Numbered from the stretch's first letter, positions 31,495-61,674 are shown. The stretch: 64,000 nucleotides of DNA from Burkholderiales bacterium (GCA_035519135.1 DATIWX010000135.1:1459-65458), one strand, 5' to 3'. The notes: a model not told the origin generated them from the letters alone. A program made the numbers and translations.

Positions 31495-32605
<1,111 letters not shown>

Positions 32606-32639
32606 TTTCAAAGGGTAAAGAGCTTCGGCCCGCCGCGGA

Positions 32640-32653
32640 TTGACCCATGTCAA
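32640..32653. promoter_or_regulatory. FNR/FixK-type box variant TTGACCCATGTCAA (symmetric, 2 mismatches) in the ald/polX divergent region
   Basis: Its centre is 41.5 bp from the ald ATG (32605) and 53.5 bp from the polX ATG (32700). Confidence 0.5.
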
Positions 32654-32699
32654 CCGACCGGTCGGCGAGTCGGCCATTATCCATATTGGAGGCTTGGCG

Positions 32700-34487
32700 A
32701 TGGGCAGACCGGCTGGCGAGGTTTCAGCAACGAAGGCGGGGGCGGTCCACAACGCCGATATCGCGCGCGCTTTCGAGGAGATCGCCGACCGGCTCGAGAT
32801 CGGCGACGCGAACCCGTTTCGCGTGCGGGCCTATCGCAACGCTGCCCGGGTGGTGGGCGAGCTGAAGCTCGATGTCGCGGCGAAGATCCGCGGTGGCGAG
32901 GCGCTGCCCAAGCTTCCGGGAATCGGCGAGGACCTGGCGGGCAAGCTCGGCGAGCTCGCGACGACCGGCCGTTGCGAGATGCTCGAGCGCCTGCGCAGGA
33001 AAATGCCGCCCGCGATCACCGAGCTGCTGCGCGTCCCGGGGCTGGGACCGAAGCGCGTCAGGGCGCTTTACCGCGAGCTCGGCGTGCAGACCCTGGAGCA
33101 GCTCCAGCGCGCGGCGCGCGACGGCCGGATCCGCGAGCTCCCGGGCTTCGGCGAGAAGTCCGAGCTGAACCTGCTGGAGTCGGTCGAGGCGCGGCTTTCG
33201 AAGGCGCGGCGCTTCAAGCTGGCCGTCGCGGCGCAGTACGCCGAGGCGCTCGCCGCGTACCTGCGCGAGTCCGCCGGTGTCGGCAAGGTCGTCGTGGCGG
33301 GCAGCCTGCGCCGCATGCGCGAGACGGTCGGCGACATCGACATTCTCGCGACGGCCGACGCCTTCAGCGATGTCATGGAGCGCTTCGTGCGCTACGGCGA
33401 GGTGAAGGACGTGCTGTCCCACGGCGAGACGCGATCGAGCGTGCTGCTCGCCTCGGGCATCCAGGCCGACCTGCGCGTCGTTCCGCGGGAGAGCTACGGC
33501 GCCGCGCTGCACTACCTGACCGGCTCGAAGGCACACAACATCGCCGTCAGGCAGCTCGCCCAGGCGCGCGGCATGAAGCTCAACGAGTACGGCGTCTTCC
33601 GGAGCGCGAAGCGCGTCGCCGGCGACACCGAGGAATCGGTGTTCGAAGCCGTGGGCCTGCCCTACATCGAGCCCGAGCTGCGCGAGGAGCACGGCGAGAT
33701 CGAGGCGGCGCGCTCAGGGCGCCTGCCCAAGCTGGTCGAGCTCGGCGACCTCCGGGGCGACCTGCACGCCCACAGCAAGTGGAGCGACGGCCGGAACACG
33801 ATCCGCGAGATGGCGCTCGCCGCGCGGGAGCACGGGCTTGCGTATCTCGCCATCACCGATCATTCGCGGCGGCTCGCCATGGCGCACGGGCTCGACCCGG
33901 AACGTCTGCGGCGGCAATGGAGCGAGATCGAGGCGACCGAGGTTCCGGGCATCACGCTGCTGAAGGGCATCGAGGTCGACGTGCTGGAGGACGGGACGCT
34001 CGATCTGCCCGACTCCGTGCTCGGCGGGCTGGACATCGTGATCGCGGCCGTGCACAGCAAGTTCAATCTCTCGCGCGAGCGCCAGACCGAGCGCATCCTG
34101 CGCGCCCTCGACCATCCGCTCGTCGCCCTGCTCGCGCACCCGCTGGGCCGGCTGATCGACGCGCGCGAGCCCTACGACGTGGACATGCTAAGGATCGTGC
34201 GCAAGGCCGCCGCACGCGGGCGCCACCTCGAATTGAACGCGCATCCGGAGCGCCTGGATCTCCTCGATACGCACTGCCGCATGGCGAAGGACGAGGGCGT
34301 GCTGGTCAGCATCAATTCCGACGCGCACAGCGCGCTCGAGTTCGACAACCTGAAATACGGCATCGGTCAGGCAAGGCGGGGATGGCTGGAGAGGAAGGAC
34401 GTGCTCAACGCGCTTTCGCTTGCCGAGCTGCGCCGGCTGCTGCCGGTCGCGCAGTCCGGCGGGCAGCGCGAGAAAGGGCCTGCCTGA
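32700..34487 (+). CDS. polX: family X DNA polymerase with a C-terminal PHP phosphoesterase domain (PolX)
   Basis: ..IARAFEEIADRLEIGDANPFRVRAYRNAA.., HhH motifs (LPGIGEDLA, VPGLGPKRV, LPGFGEKS), and a PHP domain (..DLHAHSKWSDG..). The start at 32700 is my choice among alternatives. Confidence 0.8.
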   Translation: MGRPAGEVSATKAGAVHNADIARAFEEIADRLEIGDANPFRVRAYRNAARVVGELKLDVAAKIRGGEALPKLPGIGEDLAGKLGELATTGRCEMLERLRRKMPPAITELLRVPGLGPKRVRALYRELGVQTLEQLQRAARDGRIRELPGFGEKSELNLLESVEARLSKARRFKLAVAAQYAEALAAYLRESAGVGKVVVAGSLRRMRETVGDIDILATADAFSDVMERFVRYGEVKDVLSHGETRSSVLLASGIQADLRVVPRESYGAALHYLTGSKAHNIAVRQLAQARGMKLNEYGVFRSAKRVAGDTEESVFEAVGLPYIEPELREEHGEIEAARSGRLPKLVELGDLRGDLHAHSKWSDGRNTIREMALAAREHGLAYLAITDHSRRLAMAHGLDPERLRRQWSEIEATEVPGITLLKGIEVDVLEDGTLDLPDSVLGGLDIVIAAVHSKFNLSRERQTERILRALDHPLVALLAHPLGRLIDAREPYDVDMLRIVRKAAARGRHLELNAHPERLDLLDTHCRMAKDEGVLVSINSDAHSALEFDNLKYGIGQARRGWLERKDVLNALSLAELRRLLPVAQSGGQREKGPA

Positions 34488-34900
34488 AAAGCTTTTCCTA
34501 TTTCGAGCACGACGCCGATATCGGTATCATCGGCAGGGGCGCGACGCTGGAGAGGGCGTTCGAGTCCGCCGCCGAAGCGATGTTCGCCGTCATGGCCGAT
34601 CCGCAATCGCTGCTGCGGGAATCGCAGGAGGTGTCGGTGTCCTTCACCGAGGACGATGTCGAGCTGGCGCTGGTCCAGTGGCTCAACGCCCTGCTCGGCG
34701 CGGCGAGGGAGCGGGGCGCGGTGTTCCGCCGCTTCGCGCTCGCGCGCGAAGGCCCGCGCTGGAGCGGCCGCGCCTGGGGCGAGCCCTGGCGCGAGAGTTC
34801 GGAGCGGGGCACGGAAGTGAAGGGCGCGACGCTCACCATGCTCTCAGTGAGGCAGGCGGACGGAGCGGGCTGGGAAGCCCGCTGCGTGATCGACGTCTAG
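34484..34900 (+). CDS. archease (RtcB activator)
   Basis: The conserved N-terminus ..FSYFEHDADIGIIGRGATLERAFESAAEAMF.. is present. The only nearby start candidates are a CTG at 34484 overlapping the polX stop (CTGA) and an in-frame ATG at 34382. Confidence 0.7.
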   Translation: MKSFSYFEHDADIGIIGRGATLERAFESAAEAMFAVMADPQSLLRESQEVSVSFTEDDVELALVQWLNALLGAARERGAVFRRFALAREGPRWSGRAWGEPWRESSERGTEVKGATLTMLSVRQADGAGWEARCVIDV

Positions 34901-34909
34901 GGGAAGCGA

Positions 34910-36343
34910 ATGGATCTCGAGCGACTGGAGCAGACCGGCCCCTGGGCCTGGCGCGTGAAGCGCGACCCGGGCGCCGAGCGCGCCGAGGCGGTTCTCTACG
35001 GCGACGCCGAGCTGCTGCGCACCATGGACGACAAGGTGCTCGAGCAGATCACCAACGTCGCCCGCCTTCCCGGCCTCGTCGGCCCGGCGCTCGCCATGCC
35101 CGACGCTCACTGGGGCTACGGCTTTCCGATCGGCGGCGTGGCGGCGTTCGATCCCGAGCGAGGCGGCATCATCTCCGCGGGCGGCGTGGGCTTCGACATC
35201 TCCTGCGGCATACGCTGCCTGCGAACGAGCCTCGCGGCGGAGGAAGTCGCGCCGCTGGCGTCTAGGCTCGCCGACAGCCTGTATCGCGACATTCCCGCCG
35301 GGGTCGGAGTCGAAGGCAGCCTGCAGCTCTCGATCGGAGAGCTGGATTCCGTCCTCAAGGACGGCGCACGCTGGGCGGTGCGCCACGGCTACGGCGAGGA
35401 AGCGGAGCTCGAATACGTGGAGGAGCGCGGCCGCGTCGAGGGCGCGAAGCCGCAGAACGTTTCGCAGCTGGCGAAGAAGCGCCAGCGCGGGGAGATGGGC
35501 ACGCTCGGCTCGGGCAACCACTACCTCGAGGTGCAGGTCGTCGAGCGCATCCACGACGCGGCGGCGGCGGAAGCCTACGGGCTCCGCACCGGGCAGGTCG
35601 TCGTTTCGATCCACTGCGGATCGCGCGGCCTCGGTCACCAGATCGGCACCGATTTCCTCGTCAGCCTCGCCAAGGCGGCCGGCCGGCTCGGGATCGCGCT
35701 CCCGGACCGCGAGCTCGCCTGCGCGCCGGTCCGCTCGCCCGAGGGCGAGCAGTACATCGGCGCCATGAACGCGGCGATCAACTGCGCGCTTGCGAACCGC
35801 CAGATCCTCGCGCATCTCGCGCGGCGGACTCTCGCGCATTTCTTCCCGGACGTGCGCGTCGAAACGCTGTTCGACGTCTCGCACAACACCTGCAAGCCGG
35901 AGCGCCACGAGGCGAACGGCAGGGAGCGCCTGCTGTGGGTGCACCGCAAGGGCGCGACGCGGGCGTTCGCGCCGGGCCATCCCGACATCCCGAAGCGCTA
36001 CCGCGAGGCCGGCCAGCCGGTGATCATCGGCGGCAGCATGGGCACCGGCTCGTACGTGCTCGCCGGCGTGGGCTCGAGCGAGGCGCGCGCCTGGAGCTCT
36101 GCGAGCCACGGCGCGGGACGCGCCATGAGCCGGCACCAGGCGCTCAGGCAATGGCAGGGCCGGCAGCTGGTCGATTCGCTGCGCGAGCGCGGTATCCTGA
36201 TCCGCACGCGCTCGATGCGCGGCGTCGCCGAGGAAGCCCCGGGCGCCTACAAGGACGTGGACCGCGTCGCCGAGGCGACCGAAGGCGCGGGGCTCGCGCG
36301 CCGCGTCGCCTTCCTGCGGCCGGTGGTCTGCGTGAAAGGCTGA
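34910..36343 (+). CDS. rtcB: RNA-splicing ligase RtcB
   Basis: 477 aa with ..AMPDAHWGYGFPIGGVAAF.., ..GSGNHYLEVQ.., ..HCGSRGLGHQI.., ..HRKGATRA.. Confidence 0.92.
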   Translation: MDLERLEQTGPWAWRVKRDPGAERAEAVLYGDAELLRTMDDKVLEQITNVARLPGLVGPALAMPDAHWGYGFPIGGVAAFDPERGGIISAGGVGFDISCGIRCLRTSLAAEEVAPLASRLADSLYRDIPAGVGVEGSLQLSIGELDSVLKDGARWAVRHGYGEEAELEYVEERGRVEGAKPQNVSQLAKKRQRGEMGTLGSGNHYLEVQVVERIHDAAAAEAYGLRTGQVVVSIHCGSRGLGHQIGTDFLVSLAKAAGRLGIALPDRELACAPVRSPEGEQYIGAMNAAINCALANRQILAHLARRTLAHFFPDVRVETLFDVSHNTCKPERHEANGRERLLWVHRKGATRAFAPGHPDIPKRYREAGQPVIIGGSMGTGSYVLAGVGSSEARAWSSASHGAGRAMSRHQALRQWQGRQLVDSLRERGILIRTRSMRGVAEEAPGAYKDVDRVAEATEGAGLARRVAFLRPVVCVKG

Positions 36344-36387
36344 GGCGGCTGGAACCCCGGAACCGATTTCGAAACAGGAGAAGACAC

Positions 36388-37227
36388 ATGGACTACAAGA
36401 CGATTCTCGTTCACCTCGACGCCGGCGCGCGCAGCACGGAGCGCCTTGAGCTCGCGCTGGCGCTCGCCGACCGCTACGACGCGCATCTGGTCGGCCTGTT
36501 CGCGCTGAGCGCGATGAGGACGCCCTCGTATGTCCGCGCCGATACCGTCGCCCTGCTGGTTGCCGCGCAGGAACGCCAGCGGGCCGAGGCGGCCGCCGCG
36601 GCCGAGGCGAAATTCCGCGCCGCCGCGGCGAGGTACGGCAGCGTGAAGGCGGAGTGGCGCGTCTCTCATGGGGATGCGCTGGGCGCGGTACAGCTGAGCG
36701 CGCGCTATTCCGATCTGGTGATCATCGGCCAGCGGGACCGCGATGCCGAGCGCGAAACCGGCATCGCCCCGGAATTCGTCGACGAGCTGGTCGTGTCATG
36801 CGGCCGTCCCGTACTGGTCGTTCCCTACGCCGGCCACTATCCCGATGCCGGCAAGAGAGTGCTGGTCGCCTGGAACGCGTCCGCCGAAGCGTCGCGGGCC
36901 ATGTCGGACGCCTTGCCGCTGCTCGCGCGCGCCGAGCGCGTCAATGTTGTCGTGTTCCACGCCGGGAGCCCCGGCGACCACGGCGAGGAACCGGGCGCGG
37001 ACGCCGCCCTGTACCTCGCGCGCCACGGCGTGAAGGCCGCGGTGTCGCGCTACGGCAGTCCGGGGCTGGATATCGGGTCGCAGATCCTCTCCCGCGCCGC
37101 CGACCTGACGGTCGATCTCATCGTGATGGGCGCCTACGGGCACTCCAGGATCCGCGAGCTCGTGCTCGGGGGCGCGACGCGGTCGCTGCTCGAGTCCATG
37201 ACCGCGCCGGTCCTGATGTCGCGCTGA
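36388..37227 (+). CDS. universal stress protein (tandem Usp domains)
   Basis: 279 aa from MDYKTILVHLDAG.. The second domain ends ..MGAYGHSRIRELVLGGATRSLL..PVLMSR. Confidence 0.85.
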   Translation: MDYKTILVHLDAGARSTERLELALALADRYDAHLVGLFALSAMRTPSYVRADTVALLVAAQERQRAEAAAAAEAKFRAAAARYGSVKAEWRVSHGDALGAVQLSARYSDLVIIGQRDRDAERETGIAPEFVDELVVSCGRPVLVVPYAGHYPDAGKRVLVAWNASAEASRAMSDALPLLARAERVNVVVFHAGSPGDHGEEPGADAALYLARHGVKAAVSRYGSPGLDIGSQILSRAADLTVDLIVMGAYGHSRIRELVLGGATRSLLESMTAPVLMSR

Positions 37228-37261
37228 ACCGGTTGGTGCGGCCCCGGCGACAAGCCCGCTA

Positions 37262-37275
37262 TTGATCCAGGTCAA
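37262..37275. promoter_or_regulatory. FNR/FixK-type box TTGATCCAGGTCAA
   Basis: Its centre is 71.5 bp upstream of the ATG at 37340. Confidence 0.6.
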
Positions 37276-37339
37276 GGTGCGCCGCGGGCGTGGGCATAGC
37301 GTTGAAGGATCGCGGCGGAATCGGACATCGGGAAGCGTC

Positions 37340-37933
37340 ATGGCGGACGGAGTCACTCGCCGGGAATTTCTGAAGGGCACGGGCGCAGTCATCACCGGCG
37401 TCGCCATGCTCGACCAGAGCGCGGCTGCCGAGCGCGGTCCGGGAGCGGCGGCCGCGGACTCCGGCCAGGTCGAGATTCTTCTTCACGTGAACGGCGCAAG
37501 GCGGAGCGTGAGCGTCGAGCCGCAGATGACTCTCGCGGAAGTCCTGCGCGGGCCGCTCGATCTGACCGGCACGAAAATCGGCTGCGACCGCGGCGCCTGC
37601 TCCGCCTGCACGGTGTGGCTCGATCGCGAGCCGGTTCTCTCCTGCATGACGCTCGCGCTCGACGTCGGCGAGCGCGAGGTCGTGACCATCGAGGGCCTCG
37701 CGGGCGGCGGGCGCCTTCACCCGGTACAGTCCGCGTTCATCGCCCAAGACGCGGTTCAGTGCGGCTTCTGCACGCCGGGAATGGTGATGAGCTGCGCTGC
37801 ACTCCTGGAGAGGAATCCCGATCCCAGCCGTGAAGACGTCAAGGCGGCGATCGCAGGGCATCTTTGCCGCTGCGGCACGACGCCGCACGTGCTCGATGCG
37901 GTGCTCGAAGCGGCAAAGGCGGCGAAGGGTTGA
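37340..37933 (+). CDS. (2Fe-2S)-binding small subunit of a xanthine dehydrogenase-family molybdoenzyme, with a Tat signal (PaoA-like)
   Basis: Twin-arginine motif TRREFLKGTG. FeS motifs are CDRGACSACTV and QCGFCTPG. Confidence 0.85.
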   Translation: MADGVTRREFLKGTGAVITGVAMLDQSAAAERGPGAAAADSGQVEILLHVNGARRSVSVEPQMTLAEVLRGPLDLTGTKIGCDRGACSACTVWLDREPVLSCMTLALDVGEREVVTIEGLAGGGRLHPVQSAFIAQDAVQCGFCTPGMVMSCAALLERNPDPSREDVKAAIAGHLCRCGTTPHVLDAVLEAAKAAKG

Positions 37934-37935
37934 AA

Positions 37936-40314
37936 ATGGCGGACGACGGCACCCGCACGCAGAAGCACAAGGTCGGGATGGTTCCCGGGACGCTCGGCGA
38001 AATCGAGCGCCGGGTGAGCGCGGACGAAGCGCCGCCGCTCGCCCCCAACGCGCAGCTCGCCTGGATTGGAAAATCCGTGCATCGCATCAATGGACGCGCG
38101 AAGGTGACGGGCGCCGCGCGCTTCACCGTCGACGTGAAGCTGCCGGGCATGCTCCACGGGCGGCTGCTGCGCTCGCCGCATCCGCATGCGCGTCTTGCCT
38201 CGCTCGACTTGAGCGCCGCGGGAAGGCATCCCGGCGTGCGCGCCGTGCTGCCGGTCAATGAAACCGCGGGCCGCGCCGTCGAAGCGGCGGACGAGAAGGC
38301 GTCCGGAAGCGCCGCGCGGCGCGTGCTGTACGTAGGCGATGTCGTTGCGGGCGTCGCGGCCGCCACGCCGGCCGCCGCCGAGGCGGCGCTGCGCCTCATC
38401 AAGGCGGAGTACCGGCCGCTTCCGTTCGTCGTCGATCTCGAAAGCGCGCGCAGAAGCGGCGCACCGGTCGTGTTCGAGCGTCCCGTGCACGGCGAGGGCT
38501 ACGCGGGCGCCATCGCGGGCGGTGCGCCGATCGAACAGCGCGGCAACGTGCGCGGACCGAACACGGCCGGCTCTCGCGGCGACGCGAACGCCGGATTCGC
38601 GCAAGCCGACGTCACCGTCGCAGGCGAATACCGCACGCAGGTGCAGACGCACTGCTGCATGGAGACTCACGCGGTCGTCGCCGACTGGCGCTCGGACGGG
38701 CTTACGGTATACGCGTCCACGCAGTACACGGCGGGCGTGCGCGCCGAGCTCGCGCAGATCTTCGGGCTCCCGTTGAGCCGCGTGCGCGTCGTGGTCGACG
38801 CGATGGGCGGGGGATTCGGCTCGAAGTCGAGTGCCGGAAACTACATGCGCGCCGCGGTGATGCTCTCGCGGCAGGCGGGCGCGCCCGTGCGCATCGCCCT
38901 CGACAGGAGCGAAGAGCACCTGGACAGCGGCAATCGTCCGGCGACCGTCCAGAAGCTGCGCGTCGGGGCGAAGAAGGACGGCGCGCTCACGGCGATCGCG
39001 CTCGACACCTATGGCACGGCGGGCGTGGGCCTGGGCGCCGGTGTCGGATTCTTCGCGCAGGGCCTGTATGCCTGCGAGAACTTCTCGATCTCGCAGTCCG
39101 ACGTTTTCATCAACGCCGGCCCCGGATGCGCGATGCGCGCGCCGGGCAACGTTCCCGGCGCTTTCGCGCTCGAGCAGGCGATCGACGAGCTGGCCGAGAA
39201 GCTCGGTGTCGATCCGCTCGCGCTGCGGGACAGGATCGATCCCAGTCCCGTGCACCGGGAGGAACGGCGCCTCGGCGCGGCGCGTTTCGGCTGGAGTGCC
39301 CGGCACGCGCCCGGCGCCGATACGGGACCCGTCAAGCGCGGCGTCGGCGTGGCGCAATCCTACTGGAGCGCGAACATCAATACACACGCCGCGTGCGAGG
39401 TGTGCATCCTGCGCGACGGCTCGGTGGAGCTGTTCTCCGGCGTGCAGGACATCGGCAGCGGCATCGGCACCGTGCTCGCGCAGGTCGTCGCCGAGGAGCT
39501 GGGCTTGCGGCCGGAGGACGTCGCGATTCACATCGGCGACACGAACTTTCCGGCCGGACCGCCCTCGTACGGCAGCCTGACGACCGCCTCGATCACGCCG
39601 CCCGCGCGCAATGCAGCGCACCGCGCGCTGCGCGAGCTGATGCGGACCGCGGCGCCGGCGCTCGGCGCGGCGCCTGAAAGCCTGGTCGCACGCGGCGGAC
39701 GCATCACGACCGCGGACGGCGCGCGCAGCCTGAGCTTCCGCGAGGCGGCTTCGCGGCTTCCCGCCGAGCGCATCAGCGCGGTCGCGAGCCGCTCGGACGA
39801 CTACGGCGGCTTCGCGCGCAAGTTCGGCGAGATGGCCCAGGCCAGGGAACCCCTGGGCGGCGTGCAGTTCGCGGAAGTGGCGGTGGACGTCGAGACCGGC
39901 ATCGTGCGCGTGGAGCGCGTGGTCGCCGCGCAGGACTGCGGCCGACCGATGAACCCGAAGCAGACCGAGAGCCAGGTGCACGGCGGCATCCTCATGGGTG
40001 TCTCCTACGCGCTCTACGAGAACCGCGTGATCGACCGGAACACCGGACACGTGCTCAACGCCGACCTGGAGCACTACAAGATCGCGCGCTCGCGCGAGAC
40101 GCCGGCGATCGATGTGATCCTGCTCGAGAACTATCAGGGTATGAGCGCGACCGACGCCTACGGAATCGCCGAGCCCGCGAACATCGCCACCGCGCCCGCG
40201 ATCGCCAACGCCGTCTACAACGCGATCGGCGTGCGCGTGCGCCAGCTGCCGATGACCCCGGCGACGATCCTCGCCGCGCTCGGACGGATCCCGGCCGTCA
40301 GGGCAAGCGCATGA
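37936..40314 (+). CDS. molybdopterin-binding large subunit (PaoC-like aldehyde oxidoreductase/xanthine dehydrogenase family)
   Basis: 792 aa with ..RINGRAKVTGAARFTVDVKLPGMLHG.. and ..GGGFGSK.. Confidence 0.85.
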   Translation: MADDGTRTQKHKVGMVPGTLGEIERRVSADEAPPLAPNAQLAWIGKSVHRINGRAKVTGAARFTVDVKLPGMLHGRLLRSPHPHARLASLDLSAAGRHPGVRAVLPVNETAGRAVEAADEKASGSAARRVLYVGDVVAGVAAATPAAAEAALRLIKAEYRPLPFVVDLESARRSGAPVVFERPVHGEGYAGAIAGGAPIEQRGNVRGPNTAGSRGDANAGFAQADVTVAGEYRTQVQTHCCMETHAVVADWRSDGLTVYASTQYTAGVRAELAQIFGLPLSRVRVVVDAMGGGFGSKSSAGNYMRAAVMLSRQAGAPVRIALDRSEEHLDSGNRPATVQKLRVGAKKDGALTAIALDTYGTAGVGLGAGVGFFAQGLYACENFSISQSDVFINAGPGCAMRAPGNVPGAFALEQAIDELAEKLGVDPLALRDRIDPSPVHREERRLGAARFGWSARHAPGADTGPVKRGVGVAQSYWSANINTHAACEVCILRDGSVELFSGVQDIGSGIGTVLAQVVAEELGLRPEDVAIHIGDTNFPAGPPSYGSLTTASITPPARNAAHRALRELMRTAAPALGAAPESLVARGGRITTADGARSLSFREAASRLPAERISAVASRSDDYGGFARKFGEMAQAREPLGGVQFAEVAVDVETGIVRVERVVAAQDCGRPMNPKQTESQVHGGILMGVSYALYENRVIDRNTGHVLNADLEHYKIARSRETPAIDVILLENYQGMSATDAYGIAEPANIATAPAIANAVYNAIGVRVRQLPMTPATILAALGRIPAVRASA

Positions 40315-43601: not shown

Positions 43602-44411
43602 CTATTCGAGGCGCGCCGCCGTGCGGCGGACCTGCTCCACCTCGCGGTACGAGCCGGCTTCCCCGGGTGCGTTTCCCGTCAACTCGATGAAGACGTCGTC
43701 GAGCGTTGCCTCCGGGCCGGCCTTCGCCTTCAGCTCTCCCGGCGTTCCCAGACCGGCGAGCTTCCCGCGATGCATGAACGCCACCGTCTCGCACAGGTGG
43801 TCGGCCTCATCCATGTCGTGGGTGGTCATGAACACCGTGGTGCCGAATTCGTCGCGCACCTGCTCGATGTGCCGCCACACCCCGTGGCGGGCCACCGGGT
43901 CGAGCCCGATGGTCGGCTCGTCCAGGAACAGCACCGCCGGCCGGTGCAGCATGCATTGCGCGATCTCGAGACGCCGGATCATGCCTCCCGAATAGTGGCC
44001 GACGAGGCGGTCGGCCGCGCCGGCGAGATCCATGAATTCGAGCGCCTGCCCGATGCGCGTCCTGCGCTCGGCTCCCGAAAGCCCGTACAGCTTCGCCGAG
44101 ATCAGCAGGTTCTCGTAGCCGGTGAGCTCCCCGTCCGAGGAAAGCATCTGGGAAACATATCCGATATGCCGGCGGACTTCATCCGGCTCCCGCACGATGT
44201 CGAAGCCCGCCACCGAAGCGGTTCCCGAGGTGGGCGGCAGGAGCGTCGTCAGCATCTTGATGACCGTGGTCTTTCCCGCCCCGTTCGAGCCGAGCAAGCC
44301 GAAAATGGATTTCGGCCGCACCTCGAAGCTCAGGTGGTCCACCGCGGTCAGGGACTTGAATCGACGCGTAAGAACGGAGAGCTCGACGGCCGGCCGGTGC
44401 ACGGGGTCCAT
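43602..44411 (-). CDS. ABC transporter ATP-binding protein (DrrA-like)
   Basis: Walker A GSNGAGKTT, signature YSGGMIRR, Walker B LFLDEP. I prefer the ATG at 44411 (MDPVHRP..), because the longer ORF start at 44459 lies inside an FNR-type box. Confidence 0.85.
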   Translation of the reverse strand: MDPVHRPAVELSVLTRRFKSLTAVDHLSFEVRPKSIFGLLGSNGAGKTTVIKMLTTLLPPTSGTASVAGFDIVREPDEVRRHIGYVSQMLSSDGELTGYENLLISAKLYGLSGAERRTRIGQALEFMDLAGAADRLVGHYSGGMIRRLEIAQCMLHRPAVLFLDEPTIGLDPVARHGVWRHIEQVRDEFGTTVFMTTHDMDEADHLCETVAFMHRGKLAGLGTPGELKAKAGPEATLDDVFIELTGNAPGEAGSYREVEQVRRTAARLE

Positions 44412-44445
44412 CGCCTCATTCTCGTGCGGCTGCCGGGCAGCGCGG

Positions 44446-44459: not shown

Positions 44460-44519
44460 GACCGCCGGACGGGTGTGGAAGAGAATCCATAGTCCGCGAA
44501 CTCAACAGGGGCGGCAATC

Positions 44520-45146
44520 ATGGAGCGTGGAAGCCCAGTGTCAGGATCGAAAGCCGCGCGTTCGTCGACGGGACAGACCATCAAGCTCCCGCCGCCGCAA
44601 ACGAGCGGCGGCAAGCCGCTGCTGCAGGCGCTGAAGGACCGGCACAGCGCGCGCGAATTCAGCGGCCGGGAGCTGCCGCCGGAGGTGCTCTCCAGCCTTC
44701 TGTGGGCCGCGTTCGGCATCAACCGGCCGAAAACGGGCGGCCGCACGGCGCCCTCGGCGCACGACTGGGAAGAGATCGATGTGTACGCCGCGACCGCGAA
44801 GGGGCTCTACCTGTACGAGCCGCGGGACCACGTTCTGAAGCTGGTCCTCGCGCAGGACGTCCGCGCGAAAACGGGGATGCAGGCTTTCGTCGGGGAGGCG
44901 CCCCTGAACCTCGTCTACGTCGCCGACCTGACGCGGATGACCGAGGCGACGCCGGAGGACAAAGCCTGGTATTCCGGCCCGGACGCCGGTTTTGTCGCGC
45001 AGAACGTCTACCTCTTCTGCGCGTCGGAAGGGCTCGCCGTGGTCGTGCGCGGGATGGTCGACCGCGGGGCGCTCGGGAAACTGATGTCCCTCACGCCCGA
45101 GGAGAAGATCATCCTCGCGCAGACCGTCGGCTATCCGAAGGCTTGA
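44520..45146 (+). CDS. nitroreductase-superfamily protein (paralogue of 41729..42385, no obvious signal peptide)
   Basis: 208 aa. It aligns by eye with its paralogue (..GGKPLLQALKDRHSAREFS..LSSLLWAAFGINRP..APLNLVYVAD..AQTVGYPKA). Confidence 0.75.
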   Translation: MERGSPVSGSKAARSSTGQTIKLPPPQTSGGKPLLQALKDRHSAREFSGRELPPEVLSSLLWAAFGINRPKTGGRTAPSAHDWEEIDVYAATAKGLYLYEPRDHVLKLVLAQDVRAKTGMQAFVGEAPLNLVYVADLTRMTEATPEDKAWYSGPDAGFVAQNVYLFCASEGLAVVVRGMVDRGALGKLMSLTPEEKIILAQTVGYPKA

Positions 45147-49612: not shown

Positions 49613-49626
49613 TTGATCCAAATCAA
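49613..49626. promoter_or_regulatory. FNR/FixK-type box TTGATCCAAATCAA (perfect) in a divergent region
   Basis: Its centre is 96.5 bp from the ATG at 49523 (minus strand) and 36.5 bp from the ATG at 49656 (plus strand). Confidence 0.6.
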
Positions 49627-49655
49627 GAATCGGGGCGCCGTCCGCGCGTTGATGC

Positions 49656-50189
49656 ATGTCAACACGGATGGCGCAGCCGGCTGTCAAAGTGTGGGCGATG
49701 GATTCCGGGTCGAAAATTCGGATCAACCGGTTCAGCTTCGGGGGTACCGCCGGCATCGTCGCCTGCGTGGCTCTCGTCGTCGGTCTCGGTGCGGCGGGCG
49801 CGCCGAAGTCGGTGATCGTCAGCAGCCTCCTGATCGTCGCGCTGGCCGACAATCTCACCGACTCCCTGAGCATCCATATCTATCAGGAGTCCGAGCGCCT
49901 CCCGGGGAAAGAGGCGTTTCTCGCGACCACCTCGAACTTCGTGTCGAGGCTGCTGGTGTCGTTGAGCTTCGTTCTACTCGTGCTGGCGCTGTCGATCCGC
50001 GTCGCGGTCGTGGCGGCGCTCGCCTGGGGACTGTTCCTCCTGGGTCTGCTCAGCTGGATGATCGCCCGGCAGCGCGGCGTGCAGCCGGTTCCCGAAGTGG
50101 CCAAGCATCTGTTCGTGGCCCTGGTCGTGGTGGCCGTCGCCGAGCTCATCGGCGACTGGATCCCCACCCTGCTCCCGGCCGGTCCCTGA
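49656..50189 (+). CDS. small VIT1/CCC1-like membrane protein (tentative)
   Basis: 177 aa with ..FSFGGTAGIV.. and ..LIVALADNLTDSLSIHIYQESE.., followed by TM helices. The start is uncertain (in-frame ATGs at 49656, 49668 and 49698). Confidence 0.5.
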   Translation: MSTRMAQPAVKVWAMDSGSKIRINRFSFGGTAGIVACVALVVGLGAAGAPKSVIVSSLLIVALADNLTDSLSIHIYQESERLPGKEAFLATTSNFVSRLLVSLSFVLLVLALSIRVAVVAALAWGLFLLGLLSWMIARQRGVQPVPEVAKHLFVALVVVAVAELIGDWIPTLLPAGP

Positions 50190-53537: not shown

Positions 53538-53567
53538 TTGACTCTAGCCTCTCGACCGACTAATTCC

Positions 53568-54184: not shown

Positions 54185-54204
54185 CTCGCAATCAGGAGGT
54201 CGCC

Positions 54205-54378: not shown

Positions 54379-54686
54379 AGGTCTTTCACACGCGGGCCGG
54401 GTGGGCGGTCACTTCGACTCCCGGATTCGGGAGCCGGGCCGTTCTCGGTTTTCGCGACAGCCGGACCCGCGCGAGTGAACGCGCCGAGCGTCCATTCGCC
54501 TTTCACCTCATCCCGGCGAAGAATATAGACGTGCCCGTCGTCGCCCCTGATCCTGAAATAGCGATGGTCAGGAGCCATCCAGCGGTCCAGGATCTCGAGC
54601 GCCGCAATGCGGCGCTCTCCAAGCCAGAAGGCCCGCGGCTCCTGCTCGCCGCGGTACCCGGCATAGCACTCGACCCGGATTTCCAT
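54375..54686 (-). CDS. hypothetical protein
   Basis: 103-aa ORF lying 8 nt downstream of the CBS gene on the same strand. The composition looks coding. Confidence 0.5.
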   Translation of the reverse strand: MEIRVECYAGYRGEQEPRAFWLGERRIAALEILDRWMAPDHRYFRIRGDDGHVYILRRDEVKGEWTLGAFTRAGPAVAKTENGPAPESGSRSDRPPGPRVKDL

Positions 54687-54693
54687 CGCCCGC

Positions 54694-55143: not shown

Positions 55144-55259
55144 AAGGCCTCCTGCTCTCTCGCAACCGTTTTCAAAGATCCCGCTATTTCATTCTCGACG
55201 GCAGGCGGATCGTCCGCCCGGCGACCATGAACGCGCCGCGGCCCAGGAAGGCGACCACT

Positions 55260-55592
55260 TTACTTGGGCTCGCCCGACCAGTTGTATGCGTGGACCAGCC
55301 CTCGCTGGTCGAACTTGATCTGGAGAAGCTTGACGCGCGCGTTCCCCATGTCGGGAAGATTGCCCGCGCCATGGTAATAGGCCCATTCTTCATAACGCGT
55401 GCCGCTGCTCTCTACGGCCACTCCAACGGCGGTCGGGGCGCCGAGCCAGGCGCGAACCTCAGTCTGGGTGGTAACGCCGCGCTGAACGCGGGATTCGAAG
55501 GCTGCAAGATCGAAGTCCCGGCCTATCTGGACGCTCGCGCAGGCCGAGATCATCAGCAGCACCGGGAGAACAACGATGGCCGGACGCATCAT
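55260..55592 (-). CDS. SmpA/OmlA (BamE-like) outer membrane lipoprotein
   Basis: 110 aa with the lipobox LMISAC and ..GVTTQTEVRAWLGAP.. Confidence 0.7.
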   Translation of the reverse strand: MMRPAIVVLPVLLMISACASVQIGRDFDLAAFESRVQRGVTTQTEVRAWLGAPTAVGVAVESSGTRYEEWAYYHGAGNLPDMGNARVKLLQIKFDQRGLVHAYNWSGEPK

Positions 55593-55642
55593 GGTTTTTC
55601 AGCTTCCTGATCACTAGACTAGGTCAAAGGCAGGATGTCCCT

Positions 55643-55656
55643 TTGATGTGGATCAA
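55643..55656. promoter_or_regulatory. FNR/FixK-type box TTGATGTGGATCAA (perfect)
   Basis: Its centre is 57.5 bp upstream of the ATG at 55592. It overlaps the stop of the GNAT gene. Confidence 0.65.
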
Positions 55657-56189
55657 GCGCCCTGCAGGTCCCTGGAGATGCGCATGATGGTGGGGTCCTG
55701 CGGCGCCCGCTCCGCCTTGAAGCCGAGCGCGCGGACGAAGCGCAGCATCTCGGCGTTGGCAGAGAGGACGAAGCCCTCCATGCGCGCGAGGCCGCGCTCC
55801 TTCGCGGCGTGAATCAGATCCTCCATGAGGACCCCTGCAAGCCCGGTCTTGTGCCAGGCGTCGGCGATGACGATCCCGAGCTCGCAGATCCCGCCGGAAA
55901 GATTGGACACATAGCGCGCCTCGCCGACGATTTCCTCGCGCTCGCCGTGGCGCGCCGTGCACACCAGCGCCATGTGCAGGTCGTAGTCGATGTCGGTCAG
56001 GAAGTGAATGAGCTTGTCCGAAGGCGCGTGCACCCATTTCTGGAAACGCATGTACTTGCTCTCCCCGGACAGCTCGTCAAGGAACTCGCGCACAAGGGGC
56101 GCATCGTCCGGGCGTATCGGCCGTATCGTCACCGTCCTTCCGTCGAACAGGTGGTGCTCGCGTACGAGGTGCGCGGGATACTCAGCCAT
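55653..56189 (-). CDS. GNAT-family acetyltransferase (Pat-type C-terminal-domain-like)
   Basis: 178 aa with ..IRPIRPDDAPLVREFLDELSGESKYMRF.. It overlaps the upstream acyl-CoA ligase gene by 8 nt. Confidence 0.8.
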   Translation of the reverse strand: MAEYPAHLVREHHLFDGRTVTIRPIRPDDAPLVREFLDELSGESKYMRFQKWVHAPSDKLIHFLTDIDYDLHMALVCTARHGEREEIVGEARYVSNLSGGICELGIVIADAWHKTGLAGVLMEDLIHAAKERGLARMEGFVLSANAEMLRFVRALGFKAERAPQDPTIMRISRDLQGA

Positions 56190-57870
56190 GAAGGCGTGCG
56201 GCCTCTTCCTTCAGTTGCCGGTGCAGGATCTTGCCGATCGGCGTCTTGGGGAGCTGCTCGCGGAACTCGATGCGCTTGGGCAGCTTGTACCCGGTGAGAT
56301 GCCTCGCGCAGTGGGCGAGCAGGGCTTCGGCGGTGAGCGCGGGGTCCCTGCGCACGACGAAGAGCGCGACCACCTCGCCGCTGCGCTCGTCGGGCATGCC
56401 GACCGCGCCGGCGTCCCTGACCCCGGGATGCAGCATCGCGACTTCCTCGATCTCGGCAGGGTAGGCCTTGAAGCCCGACACCACCACGATGTCCTTCTTC
56501 CGGTCGCGGAACTCGACGTAGCCGCGCTCGTCCATGCGGCCCATGTCGCCCGTCTTCAGCCAGCCGTCCGCCGTGAACGCCCTGGCGGTTTCCGACGGCG
56601 CATTCCAGTAGCCGCGCATCACCTGCGGTCCGCGCACGCCGATCTCGCCGATTTCACCTGGAGCGACTTCCCTGCCGTCCTCGTCGAGAATCGTCACCTC
56701 GGTCGAGGGGAGGGGCAGCCCGAGCTTGCCGCTGAATTCCCGGGAATCGAAGCGGTTCGCGCACACGTTCGGCGAGGCCTCGGTGAGGCCGTAGCCTTCG
56801 ACCAGCGGTACGCCGGTCGCTTTCTGCCAGCGCTCGGCGACCGGGCGCTGCACGGCCATGCCGCCTGCGACCGCCAGCTTGAGCGTGCCGCGGCTCGACG
56901 CGGCCACCGCTTCGAATCCCGGAGCGTTCAGCAGCGCGTTGAACAAGGTGTTCACGCCGGTGATGGCGGTGAACCGGGTCTTCCGCAATTCCGCGACGAA
57001 GCCGGCGATGTCGCGCGGATTGACGATCAGCACGTTGCGCCCGCCCAGCTTCAAAAAGACGAGCAGGTTCGCAGTGAGAGCGAAGACATGGTAGAGCGGC
57101 AGCGCGGTGATCACCGTTTCCGCGCCTTCCGCGAGCGTCCCCCGGGCCCAGGCCGCGACCTGCTCGACATTGGCAACCACGCTGCCGTGCGTGAGAATCG
57201 CGCCCTTGGCGAGGCCGGTGGTGCCGCCGGTGTACTGGAGAAAGGCGATGTCGCCGGGGCCCACGCCGGCTTCGCCGAGCGCTTGCGCGGCGCCCTGCTC
57301 CAGCGCTTCGCGGAACCGGAGGGCCCCGGGCAGGCGCCAGCGGGGAACCATGCGCTTCAGATATTTGACCGCGAAATTCACGAGCCATCGCTTCGGCGAC
57401 GGAAACAGGTCGCCGACCCGGGTGGCAATGACGAAGCGCACCGCGGTTCCCGGGAGTGCCTCCTGCAGGGTGCGGGCGAAGTTCTCCAGGACGACGATGG
57501 CGGTCGCACCCGAATCGGCGAGCTGGTGCGCGAGCTCGCTCGCGGTATACAGCGGATTGACGTTGACCACCGTCAGGCCGGCGCGCAGCGCCCCGAACAG
57601 CGCCACGGGATATTGCAGGAGATTGGGGAGCATGATCGCGACGCGTTCTCCCCTTTGCAGCCGCAGGACTTGCTGCAGGTAGGCGCCGAAATCCCGGGAA
57701 AGCCCCTCCAGCTCCCCGTACGTGATCGACACGCCCATGCTGGAGAGGGCGGTCCGGTCGCGGAAGCGCGCGCAGCTCCGCCCGAGCAGCTCGCCCAGGG
57801 AACCGCAGGCCGGCGGGTCGATCTCGGCCGGCACTCCTTTAGGATAGGAATCCAGCCAGATCTTCTTCAT
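56182..57870 (-). CDS. long-chain fatty acid-CoA ligase (AMP-forming)
   Basis: 562 aa with ..LQYTGGTTGLAKGAILTH.., ..GYGLTE.. and the C-terminal ..LPKTPIGKILHR.. Confidence 0.9.
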   Translation of the reverse strand: MKKIWLDSYPKGVPAEIDPPACGSLGELLGRSCARFRDRTALSSMGVSITYGELEGLSRDFGAYLQQVLRLQRGERVAIMLPNLLQYPVALFGALRAGLTVVNVNPLYTASELAHQLADSGATAIVVLENFARTLQEALPGTAVRFVIATRVGDLFPSPKRWLVNFAVKYLKRMVPRWRLPGALRFREALEQGAAQALGEAGVGPGDIAFLQYTGGTTGLAKGAILTHGSVVANVEQVAAWARGTLAEGAETVITALPLYHVFALTANLLVFLKLGGRNVLIVNPRDIAGFVAELRKTRFTAITGVNTLFNALLNAPGFEAVAASSRGTLKLAVAGGMAVQRPVAERWQKATGVPLVEGYGLTEASPNVCANRFDSREFSGKLGLPLPSTEVTILDEDGREVAPGEIGEIGVRGPQVMRGYWNAPSETARAFTADGWLKTGDMGRMDERGYVEFRDRKKDIVVVSGFKAYPAEIEEVAMLHPGVRDAGAVGMPDERSGEVVALFVVRRDPALTAEALLAHCARHLTGYKLPKRIEFREQLPKTPIGKILHRQLKEEAARLHG

Positions 57871-57871
57871 G

Positions 57872-59767
57872 TCAGGGAACGGCCGAGAGCGGGCGCGCCG
57901 GGCTCGCCGCGGCCTTGGGCGCGTCCATCAGGCTCCGCAGCTCCTCCGCGGACAGTGTTTCCTGGCGCAGCAGGGACTCGGCGCCGCGCTCCAGCACCTC
58001 GCGCCTGCGCCCGAGTATCTCGAGCGCCGAATCGAGCGCCTGCTTCACGATGCCCCGGACCGCCAGGTCGATCTCGCGGGCGGTTTCCTCGCTGAATTGG
58101 CGCGTCGGTATCGCGCCGGCGACAGGGCCGAGAAACCCGGGCCGGGTGTCGTCGTAGGCGACGCTGCCGAGCCGGTCGTCCATTCCGAAGCGCATCACCA
58201 TGCTGCGCGCGATATCGGTCGCCTTGATCAGATCGTCGGCCGCGCCGGTGGAGAGGTTCCCGAAGACGAGCAACTCGGCGGCCCGGCCGCCGAGCAGCAC
58301 CGCCATCCTGTTCTGGAGCTCCTCGCGCGCCATGAGGTAGCGGTCTTCCGTCGGCCGCTGGATGGTGTAGCCGAGCGCGCTCACGCCGCGCGGGATGATC
58401 GAGATCTTGTGCACCGGGTCCACGCGCGGCAGGGTCATCGCGACGATGGCATGCCCCATCTCGTGATGGGCGACGGCTTTCCGCTCCTCGGGATTGAGCA
58501 GGCGGTTGCGCTTTTCCAGGCCGGCGACGATGCGCTCGATCGCGCCGGTGAAATCCGCCCGCTCGATCGCTGCCGCTCCCCGCCGCGTCGCGAGCAGCGC
58601 CGCCTCGTTGACCAGCGTGGCGAGATCTGCTCCCGAGAATCCCGGCGTGAGCGCGGCGATCTCCTCGGAGTCGACATTGGACGCGAGCCGGACCTTGCGC
58701 AGGTGCACGCGCAGGATCTGCACGCGGCCGCTCTTGTCGGGGCGGTCGACCAGCACCTGCCGGTCGAATCGCCCGGCGCGCAGCAGCGCCGGATCGAGGA
58801 TCTCCGGACGGTTGGTCGCGGCGAGCAACACCACGCCGCCGCTCGTGTCGAAGCCGTCCATCTCGGCGAGCAGCTGGTTGAGCGTCTGCTCTTTCTCGTC
58901 GTGGCCGCCGAGGACGAACGAGCTGCGCGCGCGGCCGAGGGCGTCGAGCTCGTCGATGAATATGATCGCCGGGGCGGCCTGGCGCGCCTGGTCGAAGAGG
59001 TCGCGCACGCGCGCCGCGCCCACGCCGACGAACATCTCGACGAATTCCGAGCCGCTGATGGAGAAGAACGGCACGCTCGCTTCTCCTGCGACCGCGCGCG
59101 CGAGCAGGGTCTTCCCCGTTCCGGGAGGGCCGACCAGCAGGATGCCCTTGGGCATGTGCGCCCCCAGGCGGCCGTAGGATTTCGGATCGCGCAGGAAGCT
59201 GATCACCTCCTTCAGCTCGTCCTTGGCCTCGTCGACGCCGGCGACGTCCTCGAAGGTGACCTTGGTGTCGGTCTCCATGTACACCTTGGCCTTGCTCTTG
59301 CCGACCGCGAACAGCCCGCCGCCCAGCCCCTGCTGTCCGGTCATGCGCTTCATCGCGAAGCTCCAGATGGCGAAGAACACGACGGCCGGAACGACCCAGG
59401 AGAGCAGCATCTGGAGCCATTTGCTCTCGGCGCGGCCGGAGAAGCGCACCTTCGCCGCCTCGAGGTCCTGGACGAGCGCCGGATCGTCGATCTTCAGGGT
59501 GGTGAAGGCGTGTTCCCCCGGCCCGAGTTGCTTGAGCCGATCGACGCTCTCGCGCGGGAGGACGGAGTCCAGCCCCTCGGCGTTCATCGTTCCGGTGATG
59601 AGCTGCTCGCCGAGCGCCACGTCCTTCACCTTGCCCGCCCTGACCAGGGCCTTGAAGTCGCTGTAGGCGAGGTCGCGCGCGGGACTGCCCAGGTACTCCT
59701 GCATCGCGACGATGACCAGCATCGCGACCACGAAGTACCAGAGGGAAAATTGATGCTTCTTTTCCAT
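57872..59767 (-). CDS. ftsH: ATP-dependent zinc metalloprotease FtsH
   Basis: 631 aa with Walker [12 protein letters not shown], the SRH, and the zinc motif HEMGHA. Confidence 0.92.
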
Positions 59768-59802
59768 GGGATCAAGACTAGGACCCTCGGCTCTCCCGGA
59801 GT

Positions 59803-59816
59803 TTGATCCAGGTCAA
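59803..59816. promoter_or_regulatory. FNR/FixK-type box TTGATCCAGGTCAA, centred between divergent ftsH and the Hsp70 gene
   Basis: Its centre is 42.5 bp from the ftsH ATG (59767) and 41.5 bp from the Hsp70 ATG (59851). -10-like hexamers TAGTCT (minus strand, 59775-59780) and TACAGT (59839-59844) are in register. Confidence 0.65.
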
Positions 59817-59850
59817 GCTCCCTTGCCTCGCGGGGTCATACAGTCAAAAC

Positions 59851-61674
59851 ATGGTGATCATCGGAATCGATCTTGGAACCTCCAACTCGGCGGCGGCGGT
59901 GCTGCGCGGTGGCCGCCCCGTCATGATCCCCAGCGCCGAAGGCGTGAGCCTGGGCGGCAAGGCCTTCCCGAGCTACGTCGCGATCACTGCCGATGGCAGC
60001 ATGCTCATCGGCGAGCCCGCACGGCGCCAGATGACGGCCAATCCCGAGGGCACGGCTGCCGCGTTCAAGCGGCAGATGGGCACGCGCCAGAGGATCCGCC
60101 TGCGCAACCGCGACTTCACGCCAGAAGAGCTTTCCGCGTTCCTTCTCGGCAAGATCAAGCGCGACGCGGAAGGCTTCCTCGGCGAGCCGGTCAAGGACGC
60201 GGTCGTCACTGTGCCCGCCTACTTCGACGACAACCAGCGCTCGGCGACGAAGGACGCTGCCACTATCGCGGGCCTCAACGTGGTGCGGCTGGTGAACGAG
60301 CCGACCGCGGCCTCGCTCGCGTACGGCCTGGATCGCCTTGCCCAGGAGCTGCGCATCGCGGTGATCGACCTGGGCGGCGGCACGCTCGATGTCACCGTCA
60401 TGGAGTTCGGGAAGGGTGTATTCGAGGTCAAGGCGACGAGCGGCGACACGCGCTTGGGCGGCACCGACATGAACCAGGCTATTTACGAACACCTCGCGCA
60501 GCGCTTCCGCGAGGCGAGCGGCATCGACGTGCACGCCGACCGCAAGGCCGCGGCGCGGCTGCTCGAGGCAGCCGAGATGGCGAAGATCGAGCTGTCGACC
60601 GGGACGACCTCTCACATCAGCCTGCCTTACATCGGCGCCGTCGCGGGCGAGACGAAGCATCTGGAACTGGACATGACCCGCGCTGAGATGGAGCGCGCGG
60701 TGCGCCCGGTGATCGAGCGCTGCCGGCGCCCGGTCGAGCAGGCGCTCGCCGACGCCGGCGTTACGCCGGAGAGAATCGACCGCATCGTTTTCGTCGGGGG
60801 GCCTACGCGCATGCCGATGGTGCGCCAGTTCTTCGAGGACCTTCTGCACCGCAAGGCCGAGATGGGCGTCGACCCGATGGAGTGCGTTGCCGCGGGGGCA
60901 GCGATCCAGGCGGGGGTGCTCTCCGGCGAAGTAAAGGACATCGTGCTCGTCGACGTGACGCCGCTCACGCTGGGTGTGGAGACGCTCGGCGGCGTGGCGA
61001 CGCCGCTCATCGCGCGCAATACGCCGGTGCCGGTGAAGAAGAGCGAGATCTTCACCACCGCCGCCGACATGCAGACCGCCGTCACCATCCACGTGTTCCA
61101 GGGTGAGCGGCCGATGTCACTGGACAACACGAGCCTCGGGGAATTCAACCTCGACGGCCTCGCGCCCGCCCCGCGCGGAATGCCCAAGATCGAGGTTACC
61201 TTCGACATCGACTCAAACGGAATCCTCAACGTCTCGGCGCGCGACAGCGCGACCGGGCGCGCGCAATCGATCCGCATCAGCGGCTCGACGCGCCTTCCCG
61301 AGGATGTGAAGAAGCGCATGGTCGACGAGGCCGAACGCTACGCGGAGGCGGACAAGAAGCGCCGCGAGGACGCCGATGCGCTGAATGCGGCGGATTCGAT
61401 GTGCTACCAGGCGGAGAAGACGCTTGCCGATTTCGGCGACAAGCTCACCGACGAGCTGAAGGGCCGCATCGAGGCGGCGCGCCGCGAGACGCGCGAGGCG
61501 ATCGCGAAGAAGGACGCCGCGCTCGCCAAGGAGAAGACCGAGAGGCTCGGAGCGCTCCTCAAGGAGGCGGGCGCCGTGATCTATGCGCAGCAGCCCGGCG
61601 CCGGCGTGTTCCGCGAGACCAAGGTGCCCTCGGGCGCGCGGGTCGTGGATGCGGACTACAGGGAAACGCGCTGA
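59851..61674 (+). CDS. Hsp70/DnaK-family chaperone (orphan paralogue; no grpE or dnaJ adjacent)
   Basis: 607 aa from MVIIGIDLGTSNSAAAV.. with ..DLGGGTLDVTV.. and ..VFVGGPTRMP.. Confidence 0.9.
   Translation: MVIIGIDLGTSNSAAAVLRGGRPVMIPSAEGVSLGGKAFPSYVAITADGSMLIGEPARRQMTANPEGTAAAFKRQMGTRQRIRLRNRDFTPEELSAFLLGKIKRDAEGFLGEPVKDAVVTVPAYFDDNQRSATKDAATIAGLNVVRLVNEPTAASLAYGLDRLAQELRIAVIDLGGGTLDVTVMEFGKGVFEVKATSGDTRLGGTDMNQAIYEHLAQRFREASGIDVHADRKAAARLLEAAEMAKIELSTGTTSHISLPYIGAVAGETKHLELDMTRAEMERAVRPVIERCRRPVEQALADAGVTPERIDRIVFVGGPTRMPMVRQFFEDLLHRKAEMGVDPMECVAAGAAIQAGVLSGEVKDIVLVDVTPLTLGVETLGGVATPLIARNTPVPVKKSEIFTTAADMQTAVTIHVFQGERPMSLDNTSLGEFNLDGLAPAPRGMPKIEVTFDIDSNGILNVSARDSATGRAQSIRISGSTRLPEDVKKRMVDEAERYAEADKKRREDADALNAADSMCYQAEKTLADFGDKLTDELKGRIEAARRETREAIAKKDAALAKEKTERLGALLKEAGAVIYAQQPGAGVFRETKVPSGARVVDADYRETR

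Follow-up and report, generated by a model that had tools for sequence, protein, structure and literature searches.

We analysed a 64,000-nt stretch of DNA from an uncultured Burkholderiales bacterium (GCA_035519135.1, contig DATIWX010000135.1), referred to below at its full length as the window. Five genes in it are predicted to be transcribed from class II FNR-type promoters that place the transcription start site (TSS) at or directly before the ATG, and to be translated from leaderless mRNAs. They encode alanine dehydrogenase (ald), the ATPase of an ABC-2 type exporter, an Hsp70 paralogue, an FtsH paralogue and a 163-aa membrane protein that starts at 49698. We assign this reading a probability of about 0.78. 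Class II activation by FNR/CRP, divergent activation by one dimer, TAnnnT-type leaderless mRNAs and the low-oxygen lxa island are all known already. What is new is their predicted combination, as FNR-type leaderless genes in a proteobacterial lineage, which is well supported by the computations reported here.

Box, −10 and start codon geometry in the window

The window contains 13 exact copies of TTGAN6TCAA versus 0.22 expected, and none of 100 shuffled sequences reached 13. Many intergenic TGA-N6-TCA motifs occur throughout the lineage, with 13 boxes in the 64 kb of the window and 68 in the 259 kb of 11 lineage loci, window included (related and compared loci carry L-numbers below, such as L002, L162 and L172). 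Flanking positions 5 and 10 of the box are mostly T/C and G/A. Past the boxes, an xAnnnT hexamer recurs in fixed register. Of 80 box sides from the window and five related loci, 38 have the hexamer starting 22 nt past the box end and 15 have it at 23 nt (53/80), compared with a background of about 2.5 per position, and in the larger set (11 loci, 68 boxes) it starts 22–23 nt past the box on 81 of 136 sides. The box centre thus lies 28.5–29.5 bp upstream of the first −10 base. No −35 element was found, and a scan for sigma-70 −35/−10 promoters, confined to 59600–60000, gave no match. The fixed −10 register on 81/136 sides argues that the boxes are promoter elements with class II geometry, many of them bidirectional. 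The boxes at 32640 and 44446 are read as bidirectional because in-register −10s also face PolX and the nitroreductase gene.

The ATGs of the five candidates follow their −10 hexamers (TACCCT, GAGAAT, TACAGT, TAGTCT and CAAAGT) at a gap of 6–7 nt (Table 1). Five ATGs at offsets of 41.5 or 42.5 bp on the 26 box sides of the window correspond to a Poisson P of about 9e-4 from the window alone. The expected TSS was taken from dRNA-seq (differential RNA sequencing) of Burkholderia cenocepacia, using Table S4 of Sass et al. (2015, PMC4603805), where the last nt of each listed sequence is the +1. There, the −10s of BCAM0290 (CAGACT) and BCAM0294 (TAGACT) occupy 22–27 nt past the box end with TSSs at 34 nt; that of BCAM0317 (CACAAT) occupies the same interval with its TSS at 33 nt, and that of BCAM0295 (CACAGT) lies at 23–28 nt with its TSS at 35 nt. 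In these four perfect-box promoters of the lxa locus the mapped TSSs are therefore 39.5–41.5 bp from the box centre, and those of BCAM0294 and BCAM0295, which are divergent on one box, are 83 bp apart (PMC4603805). Applied to the window, this rule (end of the −10 plus 6 or 7 nt) predicts leaders of 0–2 nt for the five genes. At ald, the ABC ATPase and hsp70 the +1 would coincide with the A of the ATG; at ftsH and the 49698 gene it would be either the A or the nucleotide before it.

In the mechanism we propose, an FNR/Anr-type regulator dimer would bind TTGAT-N4-ATCAA as a class II activator, with a weak xAnnnT −10 starting 22–23 nt past the box. RNA polymerase would start 6–7 nt past the hexamer, about 40.5–41.5 bp from the box centre, at a position that would be occupied by the ATG at ald, the ABC ATPase, hsp70, ftsH and 49698. 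The transcript would begin at the start codon or 1–2 nt before it and be translated leaderless, free of a Shine-Dalgarno (SD) sequence. A single dimer at 59803–59816 would activate leaderless transcription of both ftsH and hsp70, which diverge from it.

A first-pass annotation of this DNA, made from the sequence alone, had listed five SD-less starts at 40.5–42.5 bp from a box with −10s in register. Its coordinates, distances and hexamers were re-read and are correct for ald, the ABC ATPase, hsp70 and ftsH, and so is the geometry that it gave for a single box between divergent ftsH and hsp70, whose ATGs are 84 bp apart. Its fifth start, the GTG of a UbiA gene, was not accepted as leaderless: a good SD, GAGGAG, lies 9 nt upstream and overlaps the in-register GAGCAT, which makes the case ambiguous. 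The same SD contradicts, for UbiA, the statement that these starts have no recognisable ribosome-binding site; for the ABC ATPase that statement stands, since its GAGG, 2 nt upstream of the ATG, is too near to act as an SD. The ATG at 49698 was missing from that list and is an additional leaderless candidate.

Table 1. Box-linked features of the window and box pairs in related loci; distances run from box centre to start codon.
Feature	Coordinates	Strand	Start codon	Distance (bp)	−10 element	SD	Remarks
FNR-type box TTGACCCATGTCAA	32640–32653						common to divergent ald and PolX; −10 in register on both sides
−10-like TACCCT	32612–32617	−					starts 23 nt past box end; 6 nt before ald ATG
Alanine dehydrogenase gene (ald)	31487–32605	−	ATG 32605	41.5	TACCCT		predicted leaderless
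PolX/PHP gene with −10	32675–34487	+	ATG 32700	53.5	CATTAT (32675–32680)	GGAGG (32688–32692)	leadered
FNR-type box TTGACGTACATCAA	44446–44459						common to ABC ATPase and nitroreductase genes
ABC-2 type ATPase gene with −10	43602–44423	−	ATG 44411	41.5	GAGAAT (44418–44423)		predicted leaderless
Nitroreductase gene with −10	44481–45146	+	ATG 44520	67.5	GAGAAT (44481–44486)	AGGGG	leadered
FNR-type box TTGATCCAGGTCAA	59803–59816						single box between ftsH and hsp70; intergenic region 83 bp
Hsp70 paralogue gene with −10	59839–61674	+	ATG 59851	41.5	TACAGT (59839–59844)		predicted leaderless
FtsH paralogue gene with −10	57872–59780	−	ATG 59767	42.5	TAGTCT (59775–59780)		predicted 0–1 nt leader
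Box TTGATGCATGTCAA, −10 and 163-aa membrane protein gene	49649–50189	+	ATG 49698	42.5	CAAAGT (49685–49690)		candidate leaderless
Box, −10 and UbiA gene	26476–27434	+	GTG 26523	40.5	GAGCAT (26511–26516)	GAGGAG (26508–26513)	ambiguous
Box, −10 and ATG 18753	18701–18884	+	ATG 18753	45.5	TATTCT (18736–18741)		~4-nt leader
Box, −10 and usp gene	29464–29978	+	ATG 29535	64.5	TATTCT (29499–29504)	AAGGAGAA	leadered comparator
Box pair, window	49613–49662						
Box pair, L165	19658–19707						
Box pair, L162	9926–9966						
Box pair, L168	3237–3284						

The start codons from which these distances are measured fit homology. Residues 1–370 of Ald align to positions 1–369 of the TIGR00518 profile. In Hsp70 the IGIDLGT motif begins at residue 4, and of the 45 bacterial loci with an Hsp70 orthologue, 43 have an M-x-IIGIDLGTSN start at the same position. 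The match of FtsH to its family begins at residue 12, and its N-terminal helix at about residue 8; its orthologues start with MEKKHQFS. Orthologues of the ABC ATPase (83–92% identity; 269-aa forms) keep the M-D start. Those of the 49698 protein in L162, L165 and L168 begin with an identical M-D-S at 41.5 bp, behind a diverged spacer; they align from residue 1, and nucleotide conservation starts at the ATG.

Start codon spacing and layout across the lineage

The first-pass annotation had proposed tabulating box-to-ATG distances more widely. In the 11 lineage loci, we counted ATGs that open ORFs (open reading frames) of at least 50 codons by their distance from the box centre. The distances peak at 41.5 bp, with 12 ATGs, flanked by one at 39.5 bp, three at 40.5 bp and three at 42.5 bp. 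Together these are 19 cases, over a background of 1.23 ATGs per offset (Poisson P about 1e-6). All 19, like the five window candidates, have an ATG start. They belong to ald, the ABC ATPase, the 49698 gene, two FtsH paralogues, hsp70, HtrA, cydP (NF045611), a DUF6600 protein, PolX, nitroreductase and two small proteins. The control set, 92 box sides from loci of other bacteria (1.56 Mb), had no ORF-opening ATG at 39.5–42.5 bp. The −10 register, the ATG peak, the conservation and the B. cenocepacia TSS positions all support the leaderless class II reading that the first-pass annotation had put forward.

About one quarter of the in-register promoter sides in the lineage have an ATG at the predicted TSS. 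The strict signature (TAnnnT, 6–7 nt, ATG) occurs 11 times among 150 ORFs in six loci. Six of these are box-linked; among the other five, two are clearly gene-internal and one or two are plausible. In this sample, which consists of FNR islands, leaderless genes thus seem to cluster at box promoters.

Six families switch layout among close species: ftsH, hsp70, ald, PolX, the ABC ATPase and nitroreductase. Spacing near 41.5 bp goes with no SD, and longer spacing usually goes with an SD, as the first-pass annotation had correctly observed for usp in the window (Table 1). The ftsH gene has the short, SD-less layout in the window and in L162, where a homologous promoter with the −10 TAATCT lies at 41.5 bp and nucleotide conservation begins at the ATG; it has GAGG at 65.5 bp in L168 and sits in an operon with AAGGAAAG in L166. 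For ald, the window and L176 share the short layout, while L177 has GGGAGG at 68.5 bp, L174 a weak SD-like match at 63.5 bp and L175 a leadered gene with GGGGAGG and no box. The PolX gene, leadered in the window, is at about 41.5 bp with no SD in L176, and nitroreductase, also leadered in the window, is SD-less at 39.5 bp in L177. The ABC ATPase is at about 41.5 bp in the window and L172, and L170 has no box and no clear SD.

For hsp70, which has the short layout in the window, the L162 gene has its own box at 54.5 bp and the SD GGAAGGAG. The L162 sequence aggagtcgaaacATG (9878–9895) aligns with tacagtcaaaacATG of the window (59839–59853), and therefore the SD AGGAGT and the −10 TACAGT share one position. 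The spacer is 38–39 bp shorter in the window than in L162, with one box versus two. This alignment suggests that SD and −10 hexamer may have been directly interconverted at hsp70. We also considered whether the hsp70 layout is conserved across species and rejected this: among GTDB Hsp70 orthologues, sampled as one genome per species with L002 as the only close relative, the start is conserved and nearly every gene has a long leader with an SD. Past the bacterial matches of that scan, which are mostly proteobacterial, come archaeal DnaK proteins with 56–62% identity. The window Hsp70 (59851–61674), a paralogue, has neither DnaJ nor GrpE encoded next to it.

In L176, the ald and PolX ATGs are both 41.5 bp from one box and 83 bp apart, and PolX has no SD. 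This region (7524–7607) is a second doubly 'leaderless' divergent pair, like ftsH/hsp70 of the window. The close Ald orthologues were found through a protein-cluster search; a metagenome scan with Ald gave only homologues of at most 64% identity, none with a box at 41.5 bp.

Alternative explanations and the candidate regulator

Several points weigh against leaderless class II promoters at these genes. The predicted TSS is uncertain by about 2 nt, and some mRNAs may have leaders of 1–3 nt. Some of the −10 hexamers are weak (GAGAAT, CAAAGT). The 19 lineage cases represent 13 gene families, in which orthologous cases are not independent, and the leaderless hsp70 layout is seen in the window organism alone. 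The lack of an SD adds little evidence, since a strict SD core (GGAG/GAGG/AGGA) precedes none of the candidate starts in 32 of the 52 window ORFs; with SD-poor starts so common, 'no SD' was rejected as an independent discriminator. In proteobacteria, translation of leaderless mRNAs is usually inefficient. With E. coli FNR as tblastn query no FNR gene was detected in the window, and no CRP/FNR regulator is encoded there.

The spacing could be incidental, with TSSs farther upstream (in a neighbouring gene or by read-through) that give leadered, SD-poor mRNAs, and with boxes that serve the divergent partner or act as operators. Such an arrangement would be in keeping with the frequency of SD-poor starts in the window, with the in-register −10s that face PolX and nitroreductase from the boxes at 32640 and 44446, and with the DUF3141 gene of L168, which is leadered without an obvious SD. 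It is quite unlikely, however, given a sharp 41.5-bp peak that extends over 13 families and is absent in other bacteria, in-register −10s that also face ald, the ABC ATPase, hsp70 and ftsH, and an ftsH–hsp70 spacer of only 83 bp in which the scan of 59600–60000 matched no other promoter. In L172 the ABC ATPase orthologue also has its box at 41.5 bp (−10 GACAAT) and has no divergent gene; because the upstream gene is co-directional, that box can serve only the ABC ATPase. If the TSSs are as predicted, translation could still begin at a downstream codon and yield proteins shorter than annotated. Codon 4 of the ABC ATPase gene is GTG, 11 nt downstream of GAGG, and HtrA of L162 has a second in-frame ATG 33 nt downstream. 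The ABC ATPase orthologues, which conserve M-D, have P, L, T or S in place of the codon-4 valine, so that this GTG is not a conserved alternative start. The match of Ald to its profile from the first residue, the positions of the Hsp70 motif and the FtsH helix, and nucleotide conservation that begins exactly at the ATG (49698 gene, ftsH) make downstream initiation highly improbable.

The same geometry would result if the boxes were the target of a CRP/FNR-family protein with no oxygen-sensing function (FixK-, Dnr- or CRP-like), and the regulon would then be a different one. The TTGA-N6-TCAA core is common to several CRP/FNR subfamilies, the window has no regulator gene, and the lxa locus itself encodes the CRP-family regulator BCAM0287. 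This explanation is unlikely in view of the FNR-type protein with four cysteines that is encoded in the related island L172 (19526–20356, minus strand; cNMP_binding plus HTH_Crp_2). That FNR/Anr-type regulator has the FNR cysteine pattern C-X2-C-X5-C...C (HCSSCGLRESC...EVCVIPY), and its gene adjoins a response regulator gene; it is a candidate binder of the lineage boxes. Oxygen limitation is also indicated by the genes present (cydP-cydA, usp, ald, ack-pta, Hsp20) and by the resemblance to lxa. Within the window, the protein encoded at 10975–11535 was considered as an FNR-type regulator and rejected, as it has only a cyclic-nucleotide-binding (cNMP) domain and no helix-turn-helix. Its gene is directly downstream of a box-linked dioxygenase-like gene.

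The island, known systems and significance

We regard the window, which comes from a betaproteobacterial metagenome-assembled genome, as an lxa-like island of an uncultured Burkholderiales bacterium, with predicted activation at low oxygen. Its G+C content is 68%, it shares identical sequence over part of its length with an ENA metagenome contig, and a scan of the window with Rfam matched no RNA family. The window Hsp70 shares 90% identity with its counterpart in a 'Betaproteobacteria bacterium' metagenome-assembled genome (L002), and for close FtsH, ABC and Ald orthologues the label is Burkholderiales wherever a source is given. Box-linked genes of the window encode Ald, a PolX/PHP polymerase, the ABC-2 exporter, nitroreductase, USP, a Spy/CpxP-like protein, c-type cytochromes, ElaB, FtsH and the Hsp70 paralogue. 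The window thus carries a stress/dormancy-type gene set (usp, ftsH, hsp70, ald, nitroreductase), and related loci additionally encode Hsp20, ack-pta, cydP-cydA, HtpX, HtrA and RtcB/archease.

The lxa locus of B. cenocepacia J2315 comprises 50 genes with Fnr/Anr-like TGA-N6-TCA motifs at 17 intergenic points; its genes, which include USPs, Hsp20 and a zinc protease, are induced at low oxygen (Sass et al. 2013, PMC3721108). Like lxa, the window is a large Burkholderiales island with the box motif at many intergenic points and −10s 22–23 nt past the box; this likeness to BCAM0275a–0323 is one of motif and gene types. Unlike in the window lineage, where about one quarter of the in-register sides have the ATG at the predicted TSS, the retrieved lxa genes with a mapped TSS have 5' untranslated regions of 21–173 nt. 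The architecture also resembles class II FNR/CRP promoters of E. coli (site at −41.5), with a palindromic TTGAT-N4-ATCAA and no −35. To our knowledge, the known E. coli examples carry leaders with an SD, whereas here the start codon coincides with the predicted +1. That a single dimer can activate divergent promoters is attributed to El-Robh and Busby (2002) in PMC3105977.

In B. cenocepacia, about 72 TSSs coincide with a start codon, and regulators are over-represented among these genes. In Actinobacteria and Deinococcus-Thermus, leaderless mRNAs have a TAnnnT −10 about 7 nt upstream of the start, and 19–39% of all genes in these groups are predicted to be leaderless; of 71 beta-proteobacterial genomes, just 9 were predicted to have any leaderless genes, at 6.8% on average (Zheng et al. 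2011, PMC3160421). The window genes are similar in having a TAnnnT/xAnnnT hexamer 6–8 nt before the ATG and no SD, and differ in that the leaderless genes found here are almost all tied to the sites of one activator. No account of leaderless class II promoters under FNR, Anr or CRP in proteobacteria turned up in our literature searches. The Neisseria FnrS transcript begins with AUG; since its authors showed that it is not translated, we rejected it as a precedent.

Other box-linked starts vary in layout. In the window, in-register −10s that face leadered genes (n = 11), as well as that of the UbiA GTG, all start 22 nt past the box, and those of all five leaderless candidates start at 23 nt, a rule that is not kept in relatives. 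Box pairs recur between divergent genes, with centres 27–36 bp apart, and each box apparently serves one direction (Table 1). The ATG at 18753 was rejected as a further leaderless case since it opens just a 44-codon remnant of a MacB-type ATPase. In this region (18753–19378), the N-terminus of an ABC ATPase (MALIRAEGLFKTYR...GPSGS) becomes senseless after about 44 codons in every frame, and another frame downstream ends like an outer-membrane barrel (...YARYYF); it looks like a rearranged gene remnant behind an intact box and −10. In L002, a 55-aa CydP (NF045611; 989–1156) is encoded upstream of cydA with its start 41.5 bp from the box at 1191, and the cytochrome bd operon would open with a leaderless small ORF. 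Also in L002 (6734–6781), an HlyD-like ORF after the box at 6768 (−10 TAGACT) opens 40.5 bp from the centre with ATC and has no canonical start codon nearby; either a near-cognate leaderless start or a sequencing error could account for this.

Some public gene calls over-extend these SD-less genes. The 284-aa form of the ABC ATPase begins with 'MYVN', from within the FNR box, and its over-extension is ascribed to the missing SD; other over-extended calls are a 643-aa FtsH and a 203-aa instead of a 166-aa protein (L165, 19123–19734). Gene callers mis-start these genes, and the annotations of such genomes need correction.

Tentatively, and with more doubt than confidence, we extend the reading to the regulon. 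The lineage may have moved a large share of its FNR/low-oxygen regulon (about one quarter of promoter sides) to leaderless mRNAs, and coupled low-oxygen transcription to SD-independent, 70S-type initiation. This would cover proteostasis genes (two FtsH paralogues, Hsp70 and HtrA), ald, cydP-cydAB and PolX, in a layout that is evolutionarily labile. Proteobacterial leaderless mRNAs have been thought rare and poorly translated, with a disputed role; here they are apparently concentrated in one stress regulon. The natural pairs of leadered and leaderless orthologues offer a ready comparison by which to see if oxygen limitation favours leaderless initiation. If the extension is true, it would mean regulon-specific translational selectivity in hypoxic, hibernating cells.

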